Below are positions 2,519 to 34,965 of a stretch of 64,000 nt of DNA, one piece after another. The notes under the pieces are model-generated. The model was not told where the DNA came from. It worked only from the letters and a program-made list of their open reading frames with translations, and did not search any database. Source of the stretch: Shigella phage SHFML-26. Position 1 is the stretch's first letter, and every line of letters starts with the position of its first letter. The position numbers were made by a program, and so were the translations under genes. Location: sequence record KX130862; one strand, written 5' to 3'.

Positions 2519-4696
2519 TTAGGCCGCAAGGGCCTTCATAGTTTTAGCGATTTGAGAAACTTCATCATCACTTAAAGAGTTGCGATAACCGATGAAGTCG
2601 GAAACAATACGGAATTTCTTGGTAAACTCAGCAACCATTTTATCGCTGTTTTTTGAAGCATTATTTGATAATACATCAAAAAGATTAGTTACTGTCCAGA
2701 TGTCATGACCGATGGTATCTTTTCCACCATTAAAATATACGCCCCGTAATGAACTAACCATATTAGCGAGTCGTGTATATTCTTCAGAAACTTCATCTAT
2801 ACTGAAGTACTTCATCATAAAATCTAACTCAGGATACTTGATAATTTTATCAATATATCGTTTAGCTGAACTTGAATAACCTACATACTTATCATAATCT
2901 ACATCATCAAAAGCATCTACATATAAATCACGCAAAGCTTCAAAAATACATTGGCACTGACCGAGTTCTTTTACCTTTTTCTGCAAAAGCGGACGAATAA
3001 CATAAAATTCATTAATGCCAATAAGATTAGCCATACGAATCAAAATATTCATAGATGGATGACAAAGAGATGTAGTACCATCCATAGAGAAAATATCAGA
3101 ACGATGCATATACGCTACATACCCAGTAATTTCATCTGCTTCTGATGTGAGCGTAAATAATTCCTCTTTTTCCCAGCGCCCGTCTTTAATTTCAAACTTA
3201 AATGCTGTAGCAGCTTTAGGACGAGGAGCTTTACTTTTAACTACCTTTGGAATATAACTTTTTACTAAAGCTTCAATTTCTGACAAATAATGAATGTTAA
3301 CTTCATCACTTTCAAACATCGCCATAATATCAGGGAGTAAATCAATCTGCGATTCTACTTCTGGATTAATAAACAGAAGACGTTCGTTATGATGAATATT
3401 CAAAGTGTTATTAAATTCACTATCATCTAACGCTCGTGCTAATCCACGAACAATATTAACACGATTTTTAATATTATCAATAACGATATTAATTTTTGTT
3501 GTATTAATACCAAACAGACGATAACTTGATGCAACGGCTGAAGTTTCATGACTTTGCTTAATGCGCTTCAGTCGAGGGTCAAGATTTACTTCATACACAA
3601 CTCCTGCATTGCATAACTTACTATCAGGTTCAAACATGCTTTGCATCTTCTTATATGACAGATTTTTAGTCGTAAATTTGACTGAATTACTAATCATATA
3701 ATCTCGAGCAGAATACCCCATCTTCATCAATTCACGATATGTGTGACGAGGAGATGTAGATTCTTTAAATCGTTTTACATCTTCATTAAATGCTTTCTCA
3801 CTGAGTTCTTTAACTCGTTCAATAATATTTTTACGAGTGCGATCATCCAGTGAAAGAGCCTCGCGAGATGGAGCAATATCAAGTGAACCCATTGGAAACT
3901 TAATGTAATTCACTTCATTGCGAATGCTTAGCCAGTTACGGTCTCTAATAACACCATCAATAGGATAAACAATACCGCCATAGATAGCATATAATCCACC
4001 ACGATCAGGCCAGTATCTTTCTGGATTTACACCATAATAATCATCAAAATCAGGAAAATAATCAATTTCGCGGTCAAGACCATTAATGATAGCCAAATCT
4101 TTGAACGGTCGCATGATATAAGAAACTTCATAAGCAAAGTTTCTAAAATCTTTTTCTTCAACTGGAACTACGATTTCAATACCAGTTTTATCATCTGGAC
4201 CCATTTCTTTTACGAATGTAGGTTTAATCTGTGGGCCATCACCATCCATGTAAGCTACATAACCACGAATTTCACCTTTATGATACGAAGTAATACTAAA
4301 CGTATCAGTATAACTAAACGGAGATTTAGAACCTAAACCAAATCCGCCAATAAAGTCATTAGATTCAGCTTTAGATGAACTGAAGTATGAATTATACAAC
4401 CCAGGAGAATTATCATCACCTTGAATATCAAAATCACTCATACCCGGACCAAAATCTCGACAAACAAATCGCGGATCTAAACGTCCAGGAACTTGTATAA
4501 TAAATTTTTCAGGATTTCCATTAAGTGCATGAGCATCAATCATGTTAGTAATCAATTCACGGACTACTGCGCGAATCTTGTTTGTATACAAATCAGATGA
4601 CAGAATTTTAAATACTTTAGGAGATGCTGTGATGCTAAATGCTTTTGATTTAGAACCATTACCAAGAATTGTTTCTTTTTCAGTAGTGATAATCAT
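2519..4696 (-). CDS. rIIA: rIIA protein (725 aa)
   Basis: 725-aa ORF, recognised rIIA sequence and length. Confidence 0.9.
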
Positions 4697-26630: not shown

Positions 26631-27011
26631 TCACTTAGTCAAATTTTTTACGCATGAATTATAAGAATTCACTACATACTCCATCGGAGCATTTTTACCA
26701 GTACGCCATTGGTAATTATTAGCCCAATTAGCCCAAAGTTCGGCACAGTAGTTTTCAATTTTTTCTTCGCGTGTAATTACATCTGAATTACGATACGCTT
26801 GAGCAGATTCATCTGGACGAATAGCTTCGTCAAAATTCGCCTGCATTTGTTCTACTGTCTGTTTTGGAGCCTCTTTATAACACTTAACATTAGGATTATA
26901 AAATTTGCTTGAACAATTTACAATTTTTCCTACATCAGACTGATTTACTACCGGTCCTTGAGCTACACAACCAGTAAGACCTAATGCAATAACCAAAATA
27001 GCGATTTTCAT
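26631..27011 (-). CDS. lipoprotein (imm.1 position)
   Basis: Start moved to MKIAILVIALGLTGC; lipobox; early promoter and GGAG SD. Confidence 0.5.
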   Translation of the reverse strand: MKIAILVIALGLTGCVAQGPVVNQSDVGKIVNCSSKFYNPNVKCYKEAPKQTVEQMQANFDEAIRPDESAQAYRNSDVITREEKIENYCAELWANWANNYQWRTGKNAPMEYVVNSYNSCVKNLTK

Positions 27012-27017
27012 TTTACT

Positions 27018-27054
27018 CTCCAAATCCGTATCAGTTGATAGTTGTATAGTACCA
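27018..27054 (-). repeat. conserved promoter-leader cassette (copy 2)
   Basis: Identical 37-mer to 421-457. Confidence 0.6.
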
Positions 27055-27075
27055 TGGAAGAACAGGGATGTAAAC
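27046..27075 (-). promoter_or_regulatory. T4-type early promoter upstream of imm.1-position lipoprotein gene
   Basis: GTTTACA ... TACTAT. Confidence 0.5.
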
Positions 27076-27161
27076 CGTTTTAGTTGAAAAATTTTTAAAT
27101 TGAATCCAAAGGGTCCAGAATCATCTGTTTTTCATAAGTATAGATTTATATTACTTGTATG

Positions 27162-27186
27162 AAAAAGGGACCCGGAGGTCCCTAGA
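27162..27186 (-). terminator. intrinsic terminator after gene 43
   Basis: GGGACC-UCCG-GGUCCC then UUUUUCAU. Confidence 0.6.
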
Positions 27187-27195
27187 TTTATTCTA

Positions 27196-29895
27196 TCAGC
27201 CAAACAGGAAGTCTAACGAAGCTTTTTCTTCATAGTCCATACCTGCCGATTCACACATACCTGCAAGCGGCTTAACAAACGATTTTTGGAACAAAGTTGA
27301 GTAGTCAATCCAAGATAGTACGTCAGAACGAATTTCTTTTGGAAGTTCTGTACCTGATGGCCAAGCAATGCACTTGTCACCAAATGGATTTCCTTCACGT
27401 AATGGAAGAACCATTACTTTATTTCCATCCAAAATTGGAGCTACACCTAAACCACTAACAGCTCGACGATAAGTTAGCACACCACGAATATGGAATGGGC
27501 ATTTAAATCCTGGCCAACCTTTATCATCATATTTCGCTATATCGTTCGCAGTTTTTACTTCAGCAATAACTTTATAGTCAAGTTGACGATATTCTTTCTC
27601 GAAGTTCTTGTAGTATTCTTGGACAGACTCTTCACCTTCCTGAAGAATACGACGAATACTTTCTTCGAGAGCTTCTTGCACCGCTTTTGGTGTTGAACTC
27701 TGCTGAGTTTCCATACCCATGATTTTTAGATGCGGTTCGGCAAATCGCTTATCTTCCATATCATAAACGTTCAGAGCATAACGTTTTTTCGCTTTCCAAA
27801 ATCCACCAACACCCTTTGAACCAAGCGGAGGGCAAGAAATAGCTTCACGGTCCATATGCATCAGATGCTCGCGGTTATTCATATAATCACATAACTCACG
27901 ATATGCAACATCAATCATAGGTTCCATCTTTTTCTTACCAAACTGATTCATGAATTCAACTAAATCATTTTGTTCTTTAAAGCGGTCAAGACCTACTTTT
28001 TCAATTACTTTATCTACACAAACATATACCGAATCAGTATCACCTGCTGCGATGAAATCTTCACCATTAGTTCCACATACTTTATTCAGATATTCATTAA
28101 TTTTGCGAGCAATCCATTGAATACCGACTTGACCGAAAATTGTGATAGCAGTAGCATTTCGCAAATCATAGTAGCGGAAATGAATATTACCAAGAGCACC
28201 ATAAAGACTGTTAATAAGAATTTTACGGTTCAACTGATTTGTGTTAGCAAGTGTAGCAGCTTTTTCACATTCTTCAATCAGACTGTTAAGAACAGATTCG
28301 GTGTAATTCGATAATTCGTTTAAGAAATCATCATTGAACTTAACATATCGTTCAACTTCCGGTTTAGTTGAACAGGACCCTGCGCCTTTCATAATAATCT
28401 TTTTAATAGCTTCGGCATTCATTTCTTCAGCGAACATTTTCTTTTTCCAATCTTTACGCTGGAAAAATACTTTAGCGATTTCCTTTGGAATGATACCTTC
28501 TTGATGCTTATCATACATCCATCCATTCGGAGAACAAGAATATTCATCACTCGGTTTAGGAGCTGTTCCTGCGATATATTCATGAATTGGATGAACTTTA
28601 AACTGCCCACGAATAGTCTCAGGACTAATGTTAACCTGACGAATAATGCTCGGATACAGAGACGTCAAGTCAAAACTCATAATATATCGACGAGCAATTG
28701 GTTTAGGTTCAAATACAAATGCACCCGGAAAACTCTGTTTAACGTGCGAACCTTGTTGAGGAATAACCTTATGTTCACCTTTCAATGAGTTAAAAATAAT
28801 AGCATCCCAAGTTTTAATAGGACTCATTACACCAGAAAAAGGCATTTTAGCATAATAAGACATACTTAAAACTAGATCGATAAACCCGCGAATTTTATCA
28901 ATTGCTTGAACTGATTCTACGTCAATGATGTTATAACTAATGTATCGTTGATGATTAGTCTCACGAAGTTTATTAATAGGACCGTCGTATGGTAATTTAC
29001 CTTTTTTGGTTTCATGTTGAGCAACTGATTCCAAAGAGAATGACGGCAAATTAGTAAATGCGAATTTCTTATACAAATCTAAATAATCAAGAATAGATAC
29101 GCCATCAATAGAATAAATTTCTTTGCTACCGTACATATTTTGAATTAGTTTAGATTTTACCCGACCGATTGGAGAGAAACGTTTCATACTGCGTTCACCT
29201 AGAATCATTTTAACGCGATTCATAATATATGGAACGTCAAACCCCTCAATATTCCAACCAGTAAAAATAGCAGGTCGTTTCTGTTCCCAGAGATTGATAT
29301 ATTCCATGAGCATATCACGCTCATTATCGAATGGCATATAAATTACTCGGTCAAGAATTTCTTGAGGAACTTCATCACCACCTTCACAGTCAAGCTTAGC
29401 AGCTAACTTTGCATCCCATTTTGATACTGAACCGTACATTGAATTCAAAAGGTCGAAAACATAAAAACGATCATCAATTGAATCGTAATGAGTGATAGCA
29501 TCAATTTCATATTCAGCTTTCATTGGGTCAGGAAATTTATCACCAGTAACCTCAATGTCACAGTTAGCTACACGAACAAATTTTCGGTCATAAACAATTT
29601 CTGAACCATACGTATCACTGATATAAGCGAGTTTAAAATCGTTCATACCGAGAGCTTCGAGACCGATGTCTTCCATTCGTTTCATCCAATCTCGAGCATA
29701 TTTCATTGATGGTAAATTTTTGAGGTAGCGCTAGTTTTTACCATAGATGTCTTTGTACTTTGACTCTTCCTTACAATGCCTAAACATAGTTGGAAGATAT
29801 TCTACTTCACGAGTACGTTCCTTTCCGTTTTCATCAATATAACGTTCAACAATGTTATTTCCGACTGTTTCAATAGAGATATAAAATTCTTTCAT
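27196..29895 (-). CDS. 43: DNA polymerase (gene 43, family B), interrupted by in-frame TAG at 29731..29733 (codon 55); longest ORF 27196..29706
   Basis: ATG at 29893-29895 ([14 protein letters not shown]...); exo and pol motifs (FDIE, YGDTDS); translational operator hairpin upstream. Confidence 0.85.
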
Positions 29896-29945
29896 AGATA
29901 TTCCTTAGTTTATAGCCCGAGTTATTAGGCTCTTGATATATTATA
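29896..29945 (-). promoter_or_regulatory. gene 43 leader: translational operator hairpin (GAGCCUAAUAACUCGGGCU) plus SD, with upstream TATAAT -10 element
   Basis: Hairpin read directly at 29914-29932; matches known gp43 autoregulatory operator. Confidence 0.6.
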
Positions 29946-29947
29946 CT

Positions 29948-29969
29948 CCAAATAAGGGGCCGAAGCCCC
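29948..29969 (-). terminator. stem-loop/terminator upstream of gene 43 leader
   Basis: GGGGCUUCGGCCCC then UUAUUUGG. Confidence 0.5.
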
Positions 29970-29973
29970 TTGC

Positions 29974-30195
29974 TTAAATTAGTACTATTTGTCGGTGAAA
30001 AATTGTCATTCCATCTGCATTAATTGACTTAACGACCGCAGTAAAGTGTTTTTGTTCTGGGTGAATTAATTTTTGAAATTCTACCTGAAATTTTAGTTGA
30101 AGGTTTTCTGGTAAATCGAAAAGTGTTTCTGTTGCAGAAAGATTATATTTTTCTTTAAGAGACGCCATGTATTCTTGTGGAGTTATAGCAGTCAT
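29974..30195 (-). CDS. hypothetical protein (73 aa) between regA remnant and gene 43
   Basis: ATG at 30193-30195, 1 nt after upstream TAA; ends just before terminator hairpin. Confidence 0.45.
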   Translation of the reverse strand: MTAITPQEYMASLKEKYNLSATETLFDLPENLQLKFQVEFQKLIHPEQKHFTAVVKSINADGMTIFHRQIVLI

Positions 30196-30196
30196 A

Positions 30197-30976
30197 TTAA
30201 TTACCAATCGTATATTTAGGAACGAGTTTCCATTCATGCTTTTGTTTAAAAGAAATAACTCGGAAGTTATTAGTTAAATCTTTCATAAAAGTTCTTTGAC
30301 CAGGAACGATTTCAATCAGTCCCCAATCTTCTAATAGCCATGCAATCGAATCACGACGAACTTCATCTTCTTCTGTCATTTCAACTTGGCGACCATCCAT
30401 ACGAAGCATTTCTTTAAAATGAACGATATAGTGCTTGCAGATTTCAGTCAATCGACGAATCATCTGCTTCATCATTTCAATTTTATCTTCATCGGTCGGT
30501 TGACCGAACGTAATAACTCGGCAGCGTGACTGAAGTGGTTTAATAATACCATCAATATTATTAGCAGTAATAATAATACTGCAGTTTGAACTATAAGCTT
30601 CCATAAAGGAACGAAGATGTCGCTGAGACTCTGCTAACCCTGAGCGGTCAAATTCATCAATAACGATTACTTTTTGACGACCATCAAATGAAGCTGCACT
30701 AGCAAAATTAGTCAAAGGACCACGAACGAAATCAATTTTACAGTCTGATCCATTCACAAACATCATATCAGCATTTACATCATGACACAATGCTTTTGCT
30801 ACAGTTGTTTTACCTGTTCCTGGAGAAGGAGAATGAAGAATAATATGTGGAATTTTACCTTTACTTGTAATAGATTTAAAGGTTTCTTTATCAAAGGCGG
30901 GAAGAATACATTCATCGATAGTAGATGGACGATATTTCTGTTCAAGAATGTGTTCTTTTTCATTTACAGTAATCAT
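30197..30976 (-). CDS. 44: clamp-loader gp44 N-terminal 182 aa fused in frame to RegA C-terminal 77 aa (gene 62 absent)
   Basis: ATG at 30974-30976 behind GAGGA; Walker A GTGKTT, Walker B VIVIDEFD, SRC motif; tail YIVHFKEM...KYTIGN matches RegA C-terminus. Confidence 0.7.
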   Translation of the reverse strand: MITVNEKEHILEQKYRPSTIDECILPAFDKETFKSITSKGKIPHIILHSPSPGTGKTTVAKALCHDVNADMMFVNGSDCKIDFVRGPLTNFASAASFDGRQKVIVIDEFDRSGLAESQRHLRSFMEAYSSNCSIIITANNIDGIIKPLQSRCRVITFGQPTDEDKIEMMKQMIRRLTEICKHYIVHFKEMLRMDGRQVEMTEEDEVRRDSIAWLLEDWGLIEIVPGQRTFMKDLTNNFRVISFKQKHEWKLVPKYTIGN

Positions 30977-31002
30977 AATTTCCTCATTCAAGTTTTAGTG
31001 TA

Positions 31003-31026
31003 AATTATAAAGGGCCGAAGCCCTTT
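31003..31026 (-). terminator. intrinsic terminator after gene 45
   Basis: AAAGGGCUUCGGCCCUUU then UAUAAUUU. Confidence 0.55.
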
Positions 31027-31027
31027 A

Positions 31028-31714
31028 TTAAAAATCGTGGGTAGAATCAGCTTCAAGAGCTACTACATAATTCGCATGTTCACCTTCAAATTTAGCAGCA
31101 CCTTGTTTACCTTTTGCCCAGAGCAGAAGTTTATAATTTCCTGGTTGCATTTTCATATTTGCCATGTTGATAATGAAATTAAATGTATTTTCACCATCAT
31201 AATCACCAAGAGTCAAAGAATATTTAACACGGGTCAAAGCAGAATCTTCTACTTTATTAAAACCGTTAATTACGATTTTACCTTCTTTTACTGTGATAGC
31301 AATTGTATCAATCTGCAGACCACGAGATACACGCAACAGCTGTTGAAGGTCTTCAGCTTTAATTTCAGTAACAACAGATGCTACCGGGAATGGAATTGGT
31401 TTATTAGGAGCAACTACTGTGCTCGGATCAGCTGCTGGCCAAAAAATTGTTGAACGAGCATCAGCAATTTTAATATTTCCATCTTCTGACTGGGAAATTT
31501 CTGCATCGTCATTAACTAGGGACAGAATACCGAGAAAACCGTTCAAATCGTAAATTGCTACATCAAAATCAATAGTGTCAGAAATATTTGCTTCCGCATA
31601 AGTTGTACCATTAACTGCGCGAGTCATAATAAATTGACCAGATTTAAGCATAATGCCAGAGTTAATAGTAGCGAAATTTTTAAGCAGAGCAGTAGTATCT
31701 TTAGACAGTTTCAT
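31028..31714 (-). CDS. 45: sliding clamp (gene 45)
   Basis: 228 aa, recognised gp45 sequence. Confidence 0.9.
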   Translation of the reverse strand: MKLSKDTTALLKNFATINSGIMLKSGQFIMTRAVNGTTYAEANISDTIDFDVAIYDLNGFLGILSLVNDDAEISQSEDGNIKIADARSTIFWPAADPSTVVAPNKPIPFPVASVVTEIKAEDLQQLLRVSRGLQIDTIAITVKEGKIVINGFNKVEDSALTRVKYSLTLGDYDGENTFNFIINMANMKMQPGNYKLLLWAKGKQGAAKFEGEHANYVVALEADSTHDF

Positions 31715-31769
31715 GTAATTTCCTTCAATTCAAATGAGATTTAATTTTATAACTAATTTAATAAAGCAA

Positions 31770-32159
31770 TTAACGATTAAAATCGGCAGCAATTGTTTCC
31801 GCAACAATTTGAGCAGCAACAATTAGACGTTCATCTGCATTACCACAATAATCATCTTCAAGACGTTCACCACATGAAGTCATAATAAATTTAGCACCAG
31901 CATTTAGAGATTCTGTAGTATGTTTGCGCATTAGTTCAATCCATTTATTACTTACTTCACGATCGATAGCTTCATAATACGCATGACGAGCAGGTGCAGA
32001 TTTAATTTTGTTCTGAATAACTTCCATTGCGTTATCAGAAAGAGACAAAACCCATGCTCGACGAATTTTATTTTGGTTTTGTGGATTTGATTCAGAACGC
32101 ACGTGTTTTGGCTGAATATCTTTTACATCAACAGTATAATTCACAGTAATTTTAGTCAT
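31770..32159 (-). CDS. rpbA: RNA polymerase-binding protein RpbA
   Basis: 129 aa, position between 45 and 46. Confidence 0.7.
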
Positions 32160-32168
32160 AATACACCT

Positions 32169-32357
32169 TTAGTCATAATAATCAGTAACAGTCCAAGCTT
32201 CATTTCTATTGGACATTATTTTTGTATATTCTGCTTTAAATGCATTCTTAAGCATAGATTCAGTAACTATATGCTCTTCATTAGAAAAATTATTTCTCAG
32301 AATATATCGTTTTATTTCAGGAATAGTTAATAGATGCTGTCCAGTTGAATATTCCAT
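32169..32357 (-). CDS. hypothetical protein (45.2 position)
   Basis: ORF track. Confidence 0.5.
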   Translation of the reverse strand: MEYSTGQHLLTIPEIKRYILRNNFSNEEHIVTESMLKNAFKAEYTKIMSNRNEAWTVTDYYD

Positions 32358-32412: not shown

Positions 32413-34095
32413 TTAAACCATTACAGTAAATCGACCAACTTTCTTCATTTGAAGATGCTGACCATATGCTTGCGGGTCGTGGTCTCTATGTGAAATAACA
32501 AAAACATTAGTATTTTTTAAACTATCTAAAATAGTTGAAATAGCTTTTACACCTTCAACATCGGTTGCTGAATCAAAAACTTCGTCAAGAATTAACGTGT
32601 TTATTTTAACACCTGAAACTTTTTCAGCAATATCACGCCAAGTAAATAAAAGAGCAATATCAATTCGTGCTTTTTCGCCTTGACTGAATGAAGCATAACT
32701 AAAATCTTCACGACCGCGGGATTTAATTGTCTCATTAAATTCTTCATCTAATGTAAACACATAATCCGCTTCCATTATTTTAAGATAATGGTTAATCTGC
32801 TTATTAAATAATGGAATGTACTTTTTAATAATAGCACCTTTAATACCAGAATCTTTGAGCATATCAGTCAAAATTCCTCGGTGGTATTTTTCCATTACTA
32901 AATTAGTTTTTGTCTTAACAATTTTATCAAGTTCTTCTTGAAGCAGTGCTATTTCATCAGCATGGTCAATAAACTCGGATGATGCTTTTTCTATAGCTGC
33001 TTTAACTTTTTTAGCTTTATCTACAGTCGTGATTAGAGATTGCTTTTTATTGCGAATATCATTCGCCAACGTCTGCTGAGTTTTAATATTATCTCGGTAT
33101 TCATCAACAAGAACTTTTAAATTATCACGATGTGTTGAAAGCTGTTCAAACGAATGCGTACATTCAGAAACTTTATCTTTAATTTTAGAAACAACTTTAT
33201 CACCGGAACTCAATTGTGACAAACAGGTTGGACATAATCCACCTTCGTGATACATATTAATGACTTTATTATACGAGTCAATTTTTGATTTAATTAAAAC
33301 TGCTTCTTGACCGATTTTATTAAATGCATCAGTCGGGTCTTCATCTAAAACAATATTAACTAATCTTTCATTAGCTTTTTCTATTTCCGATTTTAGCGTT
33401 CTAGCTTCTTTTGCCAAATCATCATACATATTTTGCAGACGAGTAAGATTGTCACCCGTTAATTTTTTCTGGCGTTCAACGTTATCATTATATATTTTAA
33501 TTTGTTGGATAATACTATCTTTTTTAACGTCAAGCACTTGGTTTTGTGAATTTAATTCACGTATTAGTGCTTTATTAAGCTTATCCATTTCAGCTAATGT
33601 TCCTACCTCAAGCAGGTCTTCCACAAGCTTTCTTCGCGCAGGGGTCGACAAACCCATGAAAGGGGTATACCCTGCTGTACCAAGGACAACAATCTGCTTG
33701 AAACTGGCATATGACATTCCGATAAGCTGTTCAAATTCTGCTTGGAAATCTTTACTGCTGGCAGATTCATTAAGACGTGTACCGTTAACGGTGATTTCAA
33801 AAACGTTCGGTTTTTGTCCTCTTTTGATATAGTACTTTTTCTCATCATATTCCATCCACAGTTCAACTAAAAGTTCTTTCTTATTTGTGCTGTTTATTAA
33901 TTGGCCTTTCTTTACATCACGAAATGGCTTGCCAAAAAGCCCAAATGTGATGGCTTCTAACATAGTAGACTTACCACCGCCATTTCGTCCAGTAATAAGA
34001 GTTTTTTGAACCTTATCTAATTGAATGTCAACTCCATTTTGACCAACTGACATTATATTTTTATATTTTACTCTATTAAGTTTAAATGATTTCAT
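32413..34095 (-). CDS. 46: recombination endonuclease subunit gp46 (SbcC/Rad50-like ATPase)
   Basis: 560 aa; Walker A GRNGGGKST, coiled-coil middle, CPTC zinc hook, signature and D-loop at C-terminus. Confidence 0.9.
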   Translation of the reverse strand: MKSFKLNRVKYKNIMSVGQNGVDIQLDKVQKTLITGRNGGGKSTMLEAITFGLFGKPFRDVKKGQLINSTNKKELLVELWMEYDEKKYYIKRGQKPNVFEITVNGTRLNESASSKDFQAEFEQLIGMSYASFKQIVVLGTAGYTPFMGLSTPARRKLVEDLLEVGTLAEMDKLNKALIRELNSQNQVLDVKKDSIIQQIKIYNDNVERQKKLTGDNLTRLQNMYDDLAKEARTLKSEIEKANERLVNIVLDEDPTDAFNKIGQEAVLIKSKIDSYNKVINMYHEGGLCPTCLSQLSSGDKVVSKIKDKVSECTHSFEQLSTHRDNLKVLVDEYRDNIKTQQTLANDIRNKKQSLITTVDKAKKVKAAIEKASSEFIDHADEIALLQEELDKIVKTKTNLVMEKYHRGILTDMLKDSGIKGAIIKKYIPLFNKQINHYLKIMEADYVFTLDEEFNETIKSRGREDFSYASFSQGEKARIDIALLFTWRDIAEKVSGVKINTLILDEVFDSATDVEGVKAISTILDSLKNTNVFVISHRDHDPQAYGQHLQMKKVGRFTVMV

Positions 34096-34110
34096 TTTGT
34101 ATCCAATTGT

Positions 34111-34965
34111 TCACAATGAAGAAAATTCTTTAACTAAAGCCTGTAATGAAGCCTCTATTGGATATCCATTCTTAACTAACATTTTCCTAAACATCACATG
34201 TTTAGGACGATTATATGATATCCACAATTCATACAATTTATCTTTATTATCCCAATGATAGCCTTTTCGTCGAGATGCTATATGAGCTTTTCTAATCTCC
34301 GGATTTTTCCAACTAGCAGCTACTGAATTTGATATAGCTATTTTATATTCAGGTTTTGATAAAGCAGCACGAACAGCCTTTTGGTGTTTAATTTTATTTT
34401 CTTCGTTATTAAACCATTCCCTTGAAGCCATTGAAATTTTTTGTTTTGTTTTAAAATTATTTAATCTTTCTTTGTTATCTTTCCTATTTTTTGCTACTGA
34501 AAAATATTTTAATGCCCTTTCTCTAGCAGCATTTCTATTTTGCGGATTTGAATAATATTGTTGAAGCCTTTTTGATATTGTGTCACTTACATCTTGTTTT
34601 ATAAAACTATATTCAGCAGCTATTAAATCAACTTCGGCTAAAGATAAATTTTTATATGTTTTTCCTGACATCATTCTATTTAAAGCATTTAGCATTTTTC
34701 CATTTTTACCTTTTGCTAATAAGAAATGTGCTTTAAAATGATTAAAATGACTTAAATTAACTAAATTCCATGTAGATTTTAAATATTCAGGAAATATTGA
34801 TTTAGGAAGCACGTGATGTGCTTCCGTTTTACCTGGAGTTTTAACAGTTGAATTCATAGAAATAAAATTAATGTAAGACTTGGCGTCTTCTTCACTCAAC
34901 GCTAATTTTTCAACTAATTCCTTTATTAAAAATTCATCATTAATGTCAAGTTTAAAATTCTTCAC
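34111..34965 (-). CDS. free-standing HNH homing endonuclease
   Basis: HNH-like motif (EAHHVLP...NLVNLSHFNHF); GTG start at 34963-34965 behind AAGGAA; inserted between 46 and 47. Confidence 0.65.
   Translation of the reverse strand: MKNFKLDINDEFLIKELVEKLALSEEDAKSYINFISMNSTVKTPGKTEAHHVLPKSIFPEYLKSTWNLVNLSHFNHFKAHFLLAKGKNGKMLNALNRMMSGKTYKNLSLAEVDLIAAEYSFIKQDVSDTISKRLQQYYSNPQNRNAARERALKYFSVAKNRKDNKERLNNFKTKQKISMASREWFNNEENKIKHQKAVRAALSKPEYKIAISNSVAASWKNPEIRKAHIASRRKGYHWDNKDKLYELWISYNRPKHVMFRKMLVKNGYPIEASLQALVKEFSSL

Follow-up and report, generated by a model that had tools for sequence, protein, structure and literature searches.

The 73-codon open reading frame (ORF) that precedes gene 43 in Shigella phage SHFML-26 is almost certainly orf43.1, and a real gene. 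From our perspective, the data as a whole are best explained if it represents a genuine, dispensable accessory gene of the T-even phages that is kept in one fixed slot between regA and the gene 43 terminator, a reading that we consider highly likely. The feature is one that is already known and has previously been named, and it is normal for T-even phages of the RB18 type. In the following, the window denotes the whole stretch of 64,000 nt from sequence record KX130862 that was analysed, with positions counted from its first letter.

Results

Genomic context of the ORF

Reading of the sequence and the list of ORFs agree on a reading frame of 73 codons plus stop on the minus strand, the product of which is MTAITPQEYMASLKEKYNLSATETLFDLPENLQLKFQVEFQKLIHPEQKHFTAVVKSINADGMTIFHRQIVLI, followed by the stop codon. 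An initial inspection of the sequence (referred to here as the first-pass annotation) had placed its ATG 1 nt behind the TAA of an upstream fusion ORF and its end right before a terminator hairpin and the gene 43 operator, and both positional statements were confirmed (Table 1). The stop codon is followed after 2 nt by a terminator-type stem with a UUCG loop, whose GGGGC/GCCCC core starts 4 nt past the stop. This hairpin was not flagged by a simple terminator scan, because its U run is interrupted. The second hairpin, which from established knowledge of T4 we take to be the gp43 operator, lies outside of orf43.1 and forms its downstream context. A search of Rfam returned no match within window positions 29600-30600 at E-values up to 1. 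The mechanical ORF list additionally contains an 87-codon version of the ORF that starts from an ATG at 30237 and whose additional codons run across the 3' end of regA in a different frame; the RefSeq records of GiZh, RB18 and JS98 all place the start of the gene at the ATG just past the regA stop.

Table 1. Coordinates of orf43.1 and its flanking elements in the window
Feature	Position	Strand	Basis or remark
orf43.1 CDS, allele A (RB18 type)	29974..30195	-	73 codons + TAA (29976-29974); PF25760, PHROG 3826, RB18 identity, dN/dS
Stop/start junction GGT-TAA-T-ATG	30193..30202	-	regA-frame TAA 30199-30197, single T 30196, ATG 30195-30193
44'-'regA fusion ORF	30197..30976	-	gp44 residues 1-181 joined in frame to RegA residues 45-122; junction at 30432
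regA-derived 3' part (RegA residues 45-122) of fusion ORF	30197..30432	-	PF01818 Translat_reg, model positions 27-122
Terminator-type hairpin AAGGGGC-UUCG-GCCCCUU, then U-rich tail	29954..29971	-	RNAfold; same place in all compared loci
Gene 43 translational operator hairpin, 5-bp stem, loop AAUAACUC	29914..29931	-	RNAfold; sequence identical to T4
Gene 43 ATG	29895	-	

Identification as orf43.1

The product matches the Pfam family PF25760 (Phage_RB18_ORF43, "Phage RB18 ORF43.1 protein") with an E-value of 9.6e-31 and 105.9 bits at a gathering cut-off of 27 bits, its residues 5-73 covering the model over the full length (positions 1-69 of 69), and it likewise matches PHROG 3826, a family of unknown function, from end to end (E 5.4e-38, residues 1-73 against profile positions 1-73 of 73). 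It is identical to gp43.1 of phage RB18 (YP_010066931.1) in 73 of 73 residues. The genomic position is also that of the PF25760 family, namely 3' of regA, 5' of the gene 43 terminator and operator, and on the same strand. When compared to RB18, the ORF itself shows no difference and occupies the same position between regA and the gene 43 terminator/operator, whereas the upstream neighbor is an intact regA in RB18 and a 44'-'regA fusion in the window.

The first-pass annotation had listed the ORF as unassigned, a label that has to be given up. It has a Pfam family of its own, and a conserved homolog is annotated in the corresponding slot of wild-type T-even phages, namely in RB18 ("gp43.1; 43.1"), RB51 ("similar to RB18 43.1"), GiZh ("ORF046; in regA 3' region; uncharacterized protein ORF43.1") and ime09 ("gp43.1: uncharacterized protein ORF43.1"). 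These database names, together with that of the Pfam family, establish that orf43.1 had already been named, independently of a 1990 paper by Miller and Jozwik (J Bacteriol 172:5180), which reportedly gave the first description of the gene, as a variable orf43.1 beside a conserved regA. A full-text search of a literature collection returned nothing on orf43.1, gp43.1 or PF25760, and hence no experiment or paper on the function, and in the review by Uzan and Miller RB18 is named only in another context.

Distribution among T-even phages and beyond

When 50,697 phage records were searched with the interval by megablast, 503 records of the T4 genus that share the flanks were retrieved. The type found in the window, here called allele A, is carried by 176 of them, all of which span the whole interval (95.8-99.5% identity among the matches listed) and which carry the annotation "hypothetical protein" at the ORF. 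Another 69 records harbor a second type of 78 aa, represented by RB51 and Sf24 (allele B), and neither allele is present in the remaining approximately 258, T4 and T2 included. That T4 has no gene at this position, as the first-pass annotation had suggested, is correct: in NC_000866, a spacer of only 78 nt separates the end of regA (29972) from the start of gene 43 (29893), and T2 equally has no ORF between the two genes. The T4 sequence is exactly that of the window minus the spacer T and the 222-nt ORF, from stop codon to stop codon. In the alignment, the regA TAA of T4 stands where the TAA of the ORF is found, and both ends share the sequence TAATT(T)AA.

According to tblastn, the family is present in 309 phage records in total, and its members beyond Tequatrovirus include those of JS98 (Dhakavirus), VR7 (Gaprivervirus), IME523 (Kanagawavirus), CF1 (Moonvirus) and CkP1 (Karamvirus), in all of which the gene order is 62 – regA – ORF – gene 43. 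The idea that the ORF may be lineage-specific hence stands in so far as it is a polymorphic accessory gene that occurs in roughly half of the T4-genus records, and falls in so far as homologs exist in five other genera of the Tevenvirinae. When the interval between regA and gene 43 was compared across genomes, the order regA-ORF-43 was encountered in every ORF-bearing locus examined, i.e. in 10 public phage records from six genera, in a 173-kb metagenomic phage contig and in 8 of 8 IMG/VR loci, and neither the tblastn matches nor the IMG/VR loci contained a copy of orf43.1 at any other genomic position. The family is small, with 32 clusters (90% identity) in a profile search of 5.8 billion proteins and 7 clusters (50% identity) in an exhaustive phmmer search of 1.84 billion representatives. 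Its members comprise 71-85 aa, and where they are located on long contigs, these contigs are phage-sized.

Two diverged alleles in one slot

The allele B protein (RB51, Sf24 and wV7) belongs to the same Pfam family and shares slot and flanks with the allele of the window, but it is only 42-45% identical to allele A (43-45% in a global alignment) and is longer by about 6 residues at its N-terminus. In addition, the ATG of allele B is set apart from the regA stop by 10 nt that duplicate the end of regA, the sequence reading GGTAATTAA, GGTAAATTAT and ATG in succession (positions 843-852 of the RB51 locus L005 and 1565-1574 of the Sf24 locus L003). By means of this near-duplicate, the GGT(AA) spacing ahead of the allele B start is restored.

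The degree of conservation of the ORF does not follow that of its neighbors in any consistent manner (Table 2). While GiZh and the two allele B phages are indistinguishable in RegA and in the N-terminus of gp43, their ORF43.1 proteins are strongly diverged; GiZh and the JS98-like locus L010, on the other hand, share an ORF43.1 that is better conserved than the gp43 N-terminus. In the alignments, the diverged stretch is bounded precisely by the regA stop on one side and by the stop of the ORF on the other. The gene orf43.1 evolves independently of its neighboring genes, and from the incongruent identities and the sharp borders we infer deeply diverged alleles that have either been exchanged between genera or been kept as an old polymorphism.

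Table 2. Identity of ORF43.1 and of the products of its flanking genes in four pairs of loci
Pair	RegA	gp43 N-terminus	ORF43.1
GiZh vs RB51	100%	100%	44%
GiZh vs Sf24	100%	100%	45%
GiZh vs L010 (JS98-like)	76%	57%	74%
JS98 vs L010	89%	85%	39%

The pattern of loss suggests that orf43.1 is dispensable, as the gene has been cleanly lost, as in T4 and T2, or broken repeatedly. Frameshifted copies of 62, 55 and 40 aa were found in a metagenomic sequence, in JB75 and in PhiZZ23, respectively, and in KK4/GADU22 the stop codon is lost and the frame continues across both the terminator and the gene 43 operator, for a product of 127 aa. Small variable accessory ORFs are a general class in the so-called hyperplastic regions of T-even genomes, and orf43.1 has their shortness, non-essentiality, patchiness and exchange in common. 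Unlike them, it is placed inside a conserved block of replication genes and always in one slot.

Signs of selection and predicted fold

Pairwise dN/dS values within allele A ranged from 0.06 to 0.21, those against the 74%-identical copy of L010 from 0.15 to 0.26, and JS98 versus VR7 gave 0.18. Over the entire span of 0.06-0.26, the values are thus well below 1 at all levels of divergence that are free of dS saturation. Between the window and phage Solly, the differences at codon positions 1, 2 and 3 number 5, 1 and 12 (12 of 18 at the third position), and the reading frame has been retained over approximately 60% amino-acid divergence and across six genera. Altogether, these comparisons point to a genuine gene under purifying selection.

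An alignment of 29 members revealed six family-invariant residues (K14, L19, F26, D27, L28 and E30), all of which are present in the window protein, as well as the near-invariant residues Y17, Q33, Q37, P46, F51, G62, R68 and E72. The last of these is replaced by L in allele A, a variation that is typical for the family. The AlphaFold2 model, built from an alignment of 29 sequences, reached a mean pLDDT of 90.5 and a pTM of 0.74 and consists of two helices (residues 6-16 and 30-44) and a β-hairpin (50-58 and 64-72). For the allele B type family member of NBEco003 the same fold was predicted (TM 0.74). The conserved proteins of 71-78 aa are soluble and mildly acidic, with a pI of 5.0-6.6 and a GRAVY of -0.1 to -0.7. 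In the model, F26-D27-L28-x-E30 at the start of helix 2 would act as hydrophobic staple and capping box, while P46 would be a helix-end and G62 a turn residue. The conserved positions may therefore mostly define the fold, with the remaining surface being free to vary.

The predicted fold appears to be an orphan without a relative among solved structures. A Foldseek search of the model against the PDB gave nothing at E 0.001 or better, and the best match of a sequence profile search of the PDB had an E-value of 0.42. No match was found in NCBIfam, nor in the defence profiles of PADLOC-DB, where the queries were three diverged members and E-values up to 10 were considered. Pfam offered no domain besides PF25760 even at E up to 10, and phmmer as well as the profile search of 5.8 billion proteins retrieved nothing outside the family.

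In a library of predicted viral structures (BFVD), the significant matches were family members and one further protein, A0A0B6VP55 of Edwardsiella phage PEi26 (72 aa, TM 0.82, 23% identity). The latter is a possible remote structural relative, as is A0A0A7HFU1 of phage VR25 (68 aa, TM 0.59, E 0.05). Neither of the two candidates is detectable by sequence, and a search with a diverged query for the PEi26 relative recovered only the same 309 records.

The 44–regA fusion and other features of the window

The ORF upstream of orf43.1 is an in-frame fusion of the first part of gene 44 to the last part of regA (Table 1). Relative to GiZh, 1114 bp are missing, comprising the 3' portion of gene 44, the entire gene 62 and the 5' portion of regA, and the microhomology at the junction amounts to only 1 nt. 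The deletion removes essential clamp-loader functions, and on our reading of the fusion the genome of the window has no functional RegA.

A second irregularity was observed in gene 43, where three single-base insertions (T on the plus strand) are found within 20 nt, at about 29713, 29726 and 29732, relative to T4 and to all 475 related records. As a result, a TAG arises in frame after codon 54 (29731-29733, minus strand), and CAPQKF is turned into a stop followed by RYLKNL, whereafter the normal frame resumes; a start for the long ORF is next available at an internal ATG at 29706. The insertions either reflect true damage to the essential polymerase gene or an error of sequencing or assembly, and the deletion between 44 and regA, too, may be real or an assembly error.

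Genes 42 and 43 have nearly the same coordinates in the window as in T4, yet the window is not T4 itself. In a comparison of positions 1-64000 with T4 (NC_000866), the first T4 position corresponds to window position 2508, and identity is 94-98% in most of the aligned blocks and 78-89% in a few. With many insertions and deletions relative to T4, the window represents a distinct Tequatrovirus. It is devoid of several T4 mobile elements, as seen from alignment gaps that coincide with the segA/b-gt region, with mobB and with the I-TevII intron of nrdD, and its mobC region differs from that of T4. Conversely, 861 bp are inserted relative to T4 at 34087-34947 between gene 46 and 46.1. The corresponding ORF (34111-34965, minus strand, 284 aa) matches no Pfam family at E-values of 0.001 or below and contains a His/Asn-rich stretch that, by eye only, recalls HNH endonucleases. 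The phage records closest to window positions 27000-32200 show 97.7% identity.

Discussion

How orf43.1 may be expressed

A promoter scan that covered sites of the sigma-70 type, and to which a MotA-dependent middle promoter inside regA would be invisible, revealed none between orf43.1 and the upstream cistron. Since the gene thus lacks a sigma-70-like promoter and is located upstream of the terminator, it would be transcribed as the terminal cistron of the prereplicative 45-44-62-regA messages. The ATG lies only 1 nt past the regA stop and is preceded by no more than a weak Shine-Dalgarno-like GGT at -10 to -8, a spacing that suggests termination-reinitiation coupling, in which ribosomes that finish regA would re-initiate on orf43.1, so that its output would follow regA translation. 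On balance, we lean towards this model of a last cistron that is coupled to regA translation.

The tight stop/start layout, which occurs as TAAT-ATG, TGAT-ATG or ATAATG, is found in the loci from Tequatro-, Dhaka-, Gapriver-, Kanagawa-, Moon- and Karamvirus. It is well known that the replication operon of T4 contains translationally coupled cistrons, such as the adjacent genes 44 and 62. These have a 1-nt gap or overlap and a weakly signalled downstream start, and orf43.1 is alike in this respect, with the stops and starts in the GiZh locus located at 2629/2631 for 44/62, at 3194/3196 for 62/regA and at 3564/3566 for regA/orf43.1. In contrast to the coupled cistrons of T4, the coupling of orf43.1 to regA is deduced from this spacing. 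As the upstream partner in the window is the 44'-'regA fusion, orf43.1 would here be coupled to a cistron that is driven by the gene 44 start site.

What ORF43.1 may do

No catalytic, membrane or nucleic-acid-binding signature was detected in orf43.1, and the protein therefore probably works by binding a partner. Regarding the nature of this partner, the diversity of the alleles, their exchange and the repeated loss of the gene would fit a variable host factor, in the course of host takeover or counter-defence, better than a core replication protein of the phage such as RegA or gp43. Such a host-factor-binding role, for which the evolutionary pattern is the argument, is a tentative proposal whose chances we put below even.

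In a more specific form of this proposal, orf43.1 would be a hypervariable cassette for counter-defence or host takeover with an orphan fold, the alleles of which neutralise different variants of host factors or immunity proteins. Recombination in the conserved regA end and the terminator would then exchange the alleles between phages, and the gene would be lost wherever its target is missing. The incongruence of the alleles, the patchy loss, the purifying selection within an allele and the missing resemblance to any known fold are compatible with a counter-defence cassette, without demonstrating it, and we regard this form as possible, albeit rather doubtful.

From the invariable position of the gene one could equally argue for a partner that is internal to the phage. 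ORF43.1 would then be a regulator that binds RegA, the gp43 polymerase or the gp45 clamp and tunes translational repression or replication, which would agree with the regA-ORF-43 synteny being the same in all loci examined, with the constant adjacency to regA and gene 43 and with the conserved stop/start arrangement with regA. In this context, residues 24-28 of the family, [ST]-[LVIF]-F-D-L (T-L-F-D-L in the window), presumably bear a loose likeness to the C-terminal clamp-binding peptide of the RB69 polymerase. However, F-D-L-x-E starts helix 2 in the confident model and looks like a helix cap rather than a free peptide. Furthermore, RegA and the gp43 N-terminus are 100% identical between allele A and allele B phages, yet their ORF43.1 alleles are only 44-45% identical, and T4 does without a copy despite having the same regA, terminator and operator sequences, both of which argue against RegA or gp43 as partner. 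One would not expect a dedicated partner of such conserved proteins to differ or vanish so freely, and a phage-internal regulator hence seems unlikely to us.

Other explanations of the ORF

The incongruence between the alleles and their flanking genes, together with the sharp borders of presence and absence at two stop codons and the TAATT(T)AA repeat, could also be taken as a sign that the ORF is cargo or a remnant of a mobile cassette, for example of a free-standing homing endonuclease, and owes its distribution to selfish spread. This is quite improbable, as the ORF contains neither a nuclease domain (HNH, GIY-YIG or similar) nor any other Pfam domain, no endonuclease gene adjoins it in any locus, where the neighbors are always regA and gene 43, it was found at no other genomic position, and there is purifying selection on the protein itself.

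Even less probable, and in our opinion very much so, is that the ORF represents a spurious call or a non-functional, decaying remnant that is passively carried between two essential genes. It is true that it is missing from about half of the T4-genus genomes, including T4 and T2, and that several isolates have acquired frameshifts or lost the stop codon. However, dN/dS is well below 1 wherever dS is unsaturated, the frame has survived an amino-acid divergence of about 60% across six genera, the family members have a confidently predicted fold in common, and the context of the start site is maintained, in allele B by means of a duplication.

Finally, the first-pass annotation had considered that the ORF might be linked to the rearrangement behind the fusion; that it is a by-product of this event, or functionally tied to it, has a practically negligible probability, as physical proximity (the junction lies 237 nt upstream of the orf43.1 ATG) stands against an identical 73-aa protein in RB18, GiZh, HP3 and many other phages with intact 44, 62 and regA, and against a junction that is unique to the window, being absent from the 503 related phage records, from IMG/VR (no exact match) and from E. 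coli assemblies. From the 3' end of regA up to gene 43, the ORF included, the window matches ordinary isolates at 99.5% identity, from which it follows that the ORF predates the deletion and is independent of it. As a normal and named feature of RB18-type phages, orf43.1 should consequently not be read as evidence on the rearrangement.

Significance

Overall, orf43.1 is one of the many small genes of T-even phages that have a curated family but lack an assigned function. To what was known of it, the present analysis adds data on selection, on the orphan fold, on the fixed slot and on the exchange of alleles. If the counter-defence reading were true, it would mean that a new anti-defence family is hidden inside the replication operon. 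The evidence of selection, the confidently predicted orphan fold, the single slot and the alleles that move independently of their flanks make orf43.1 tractable for experimental testing.
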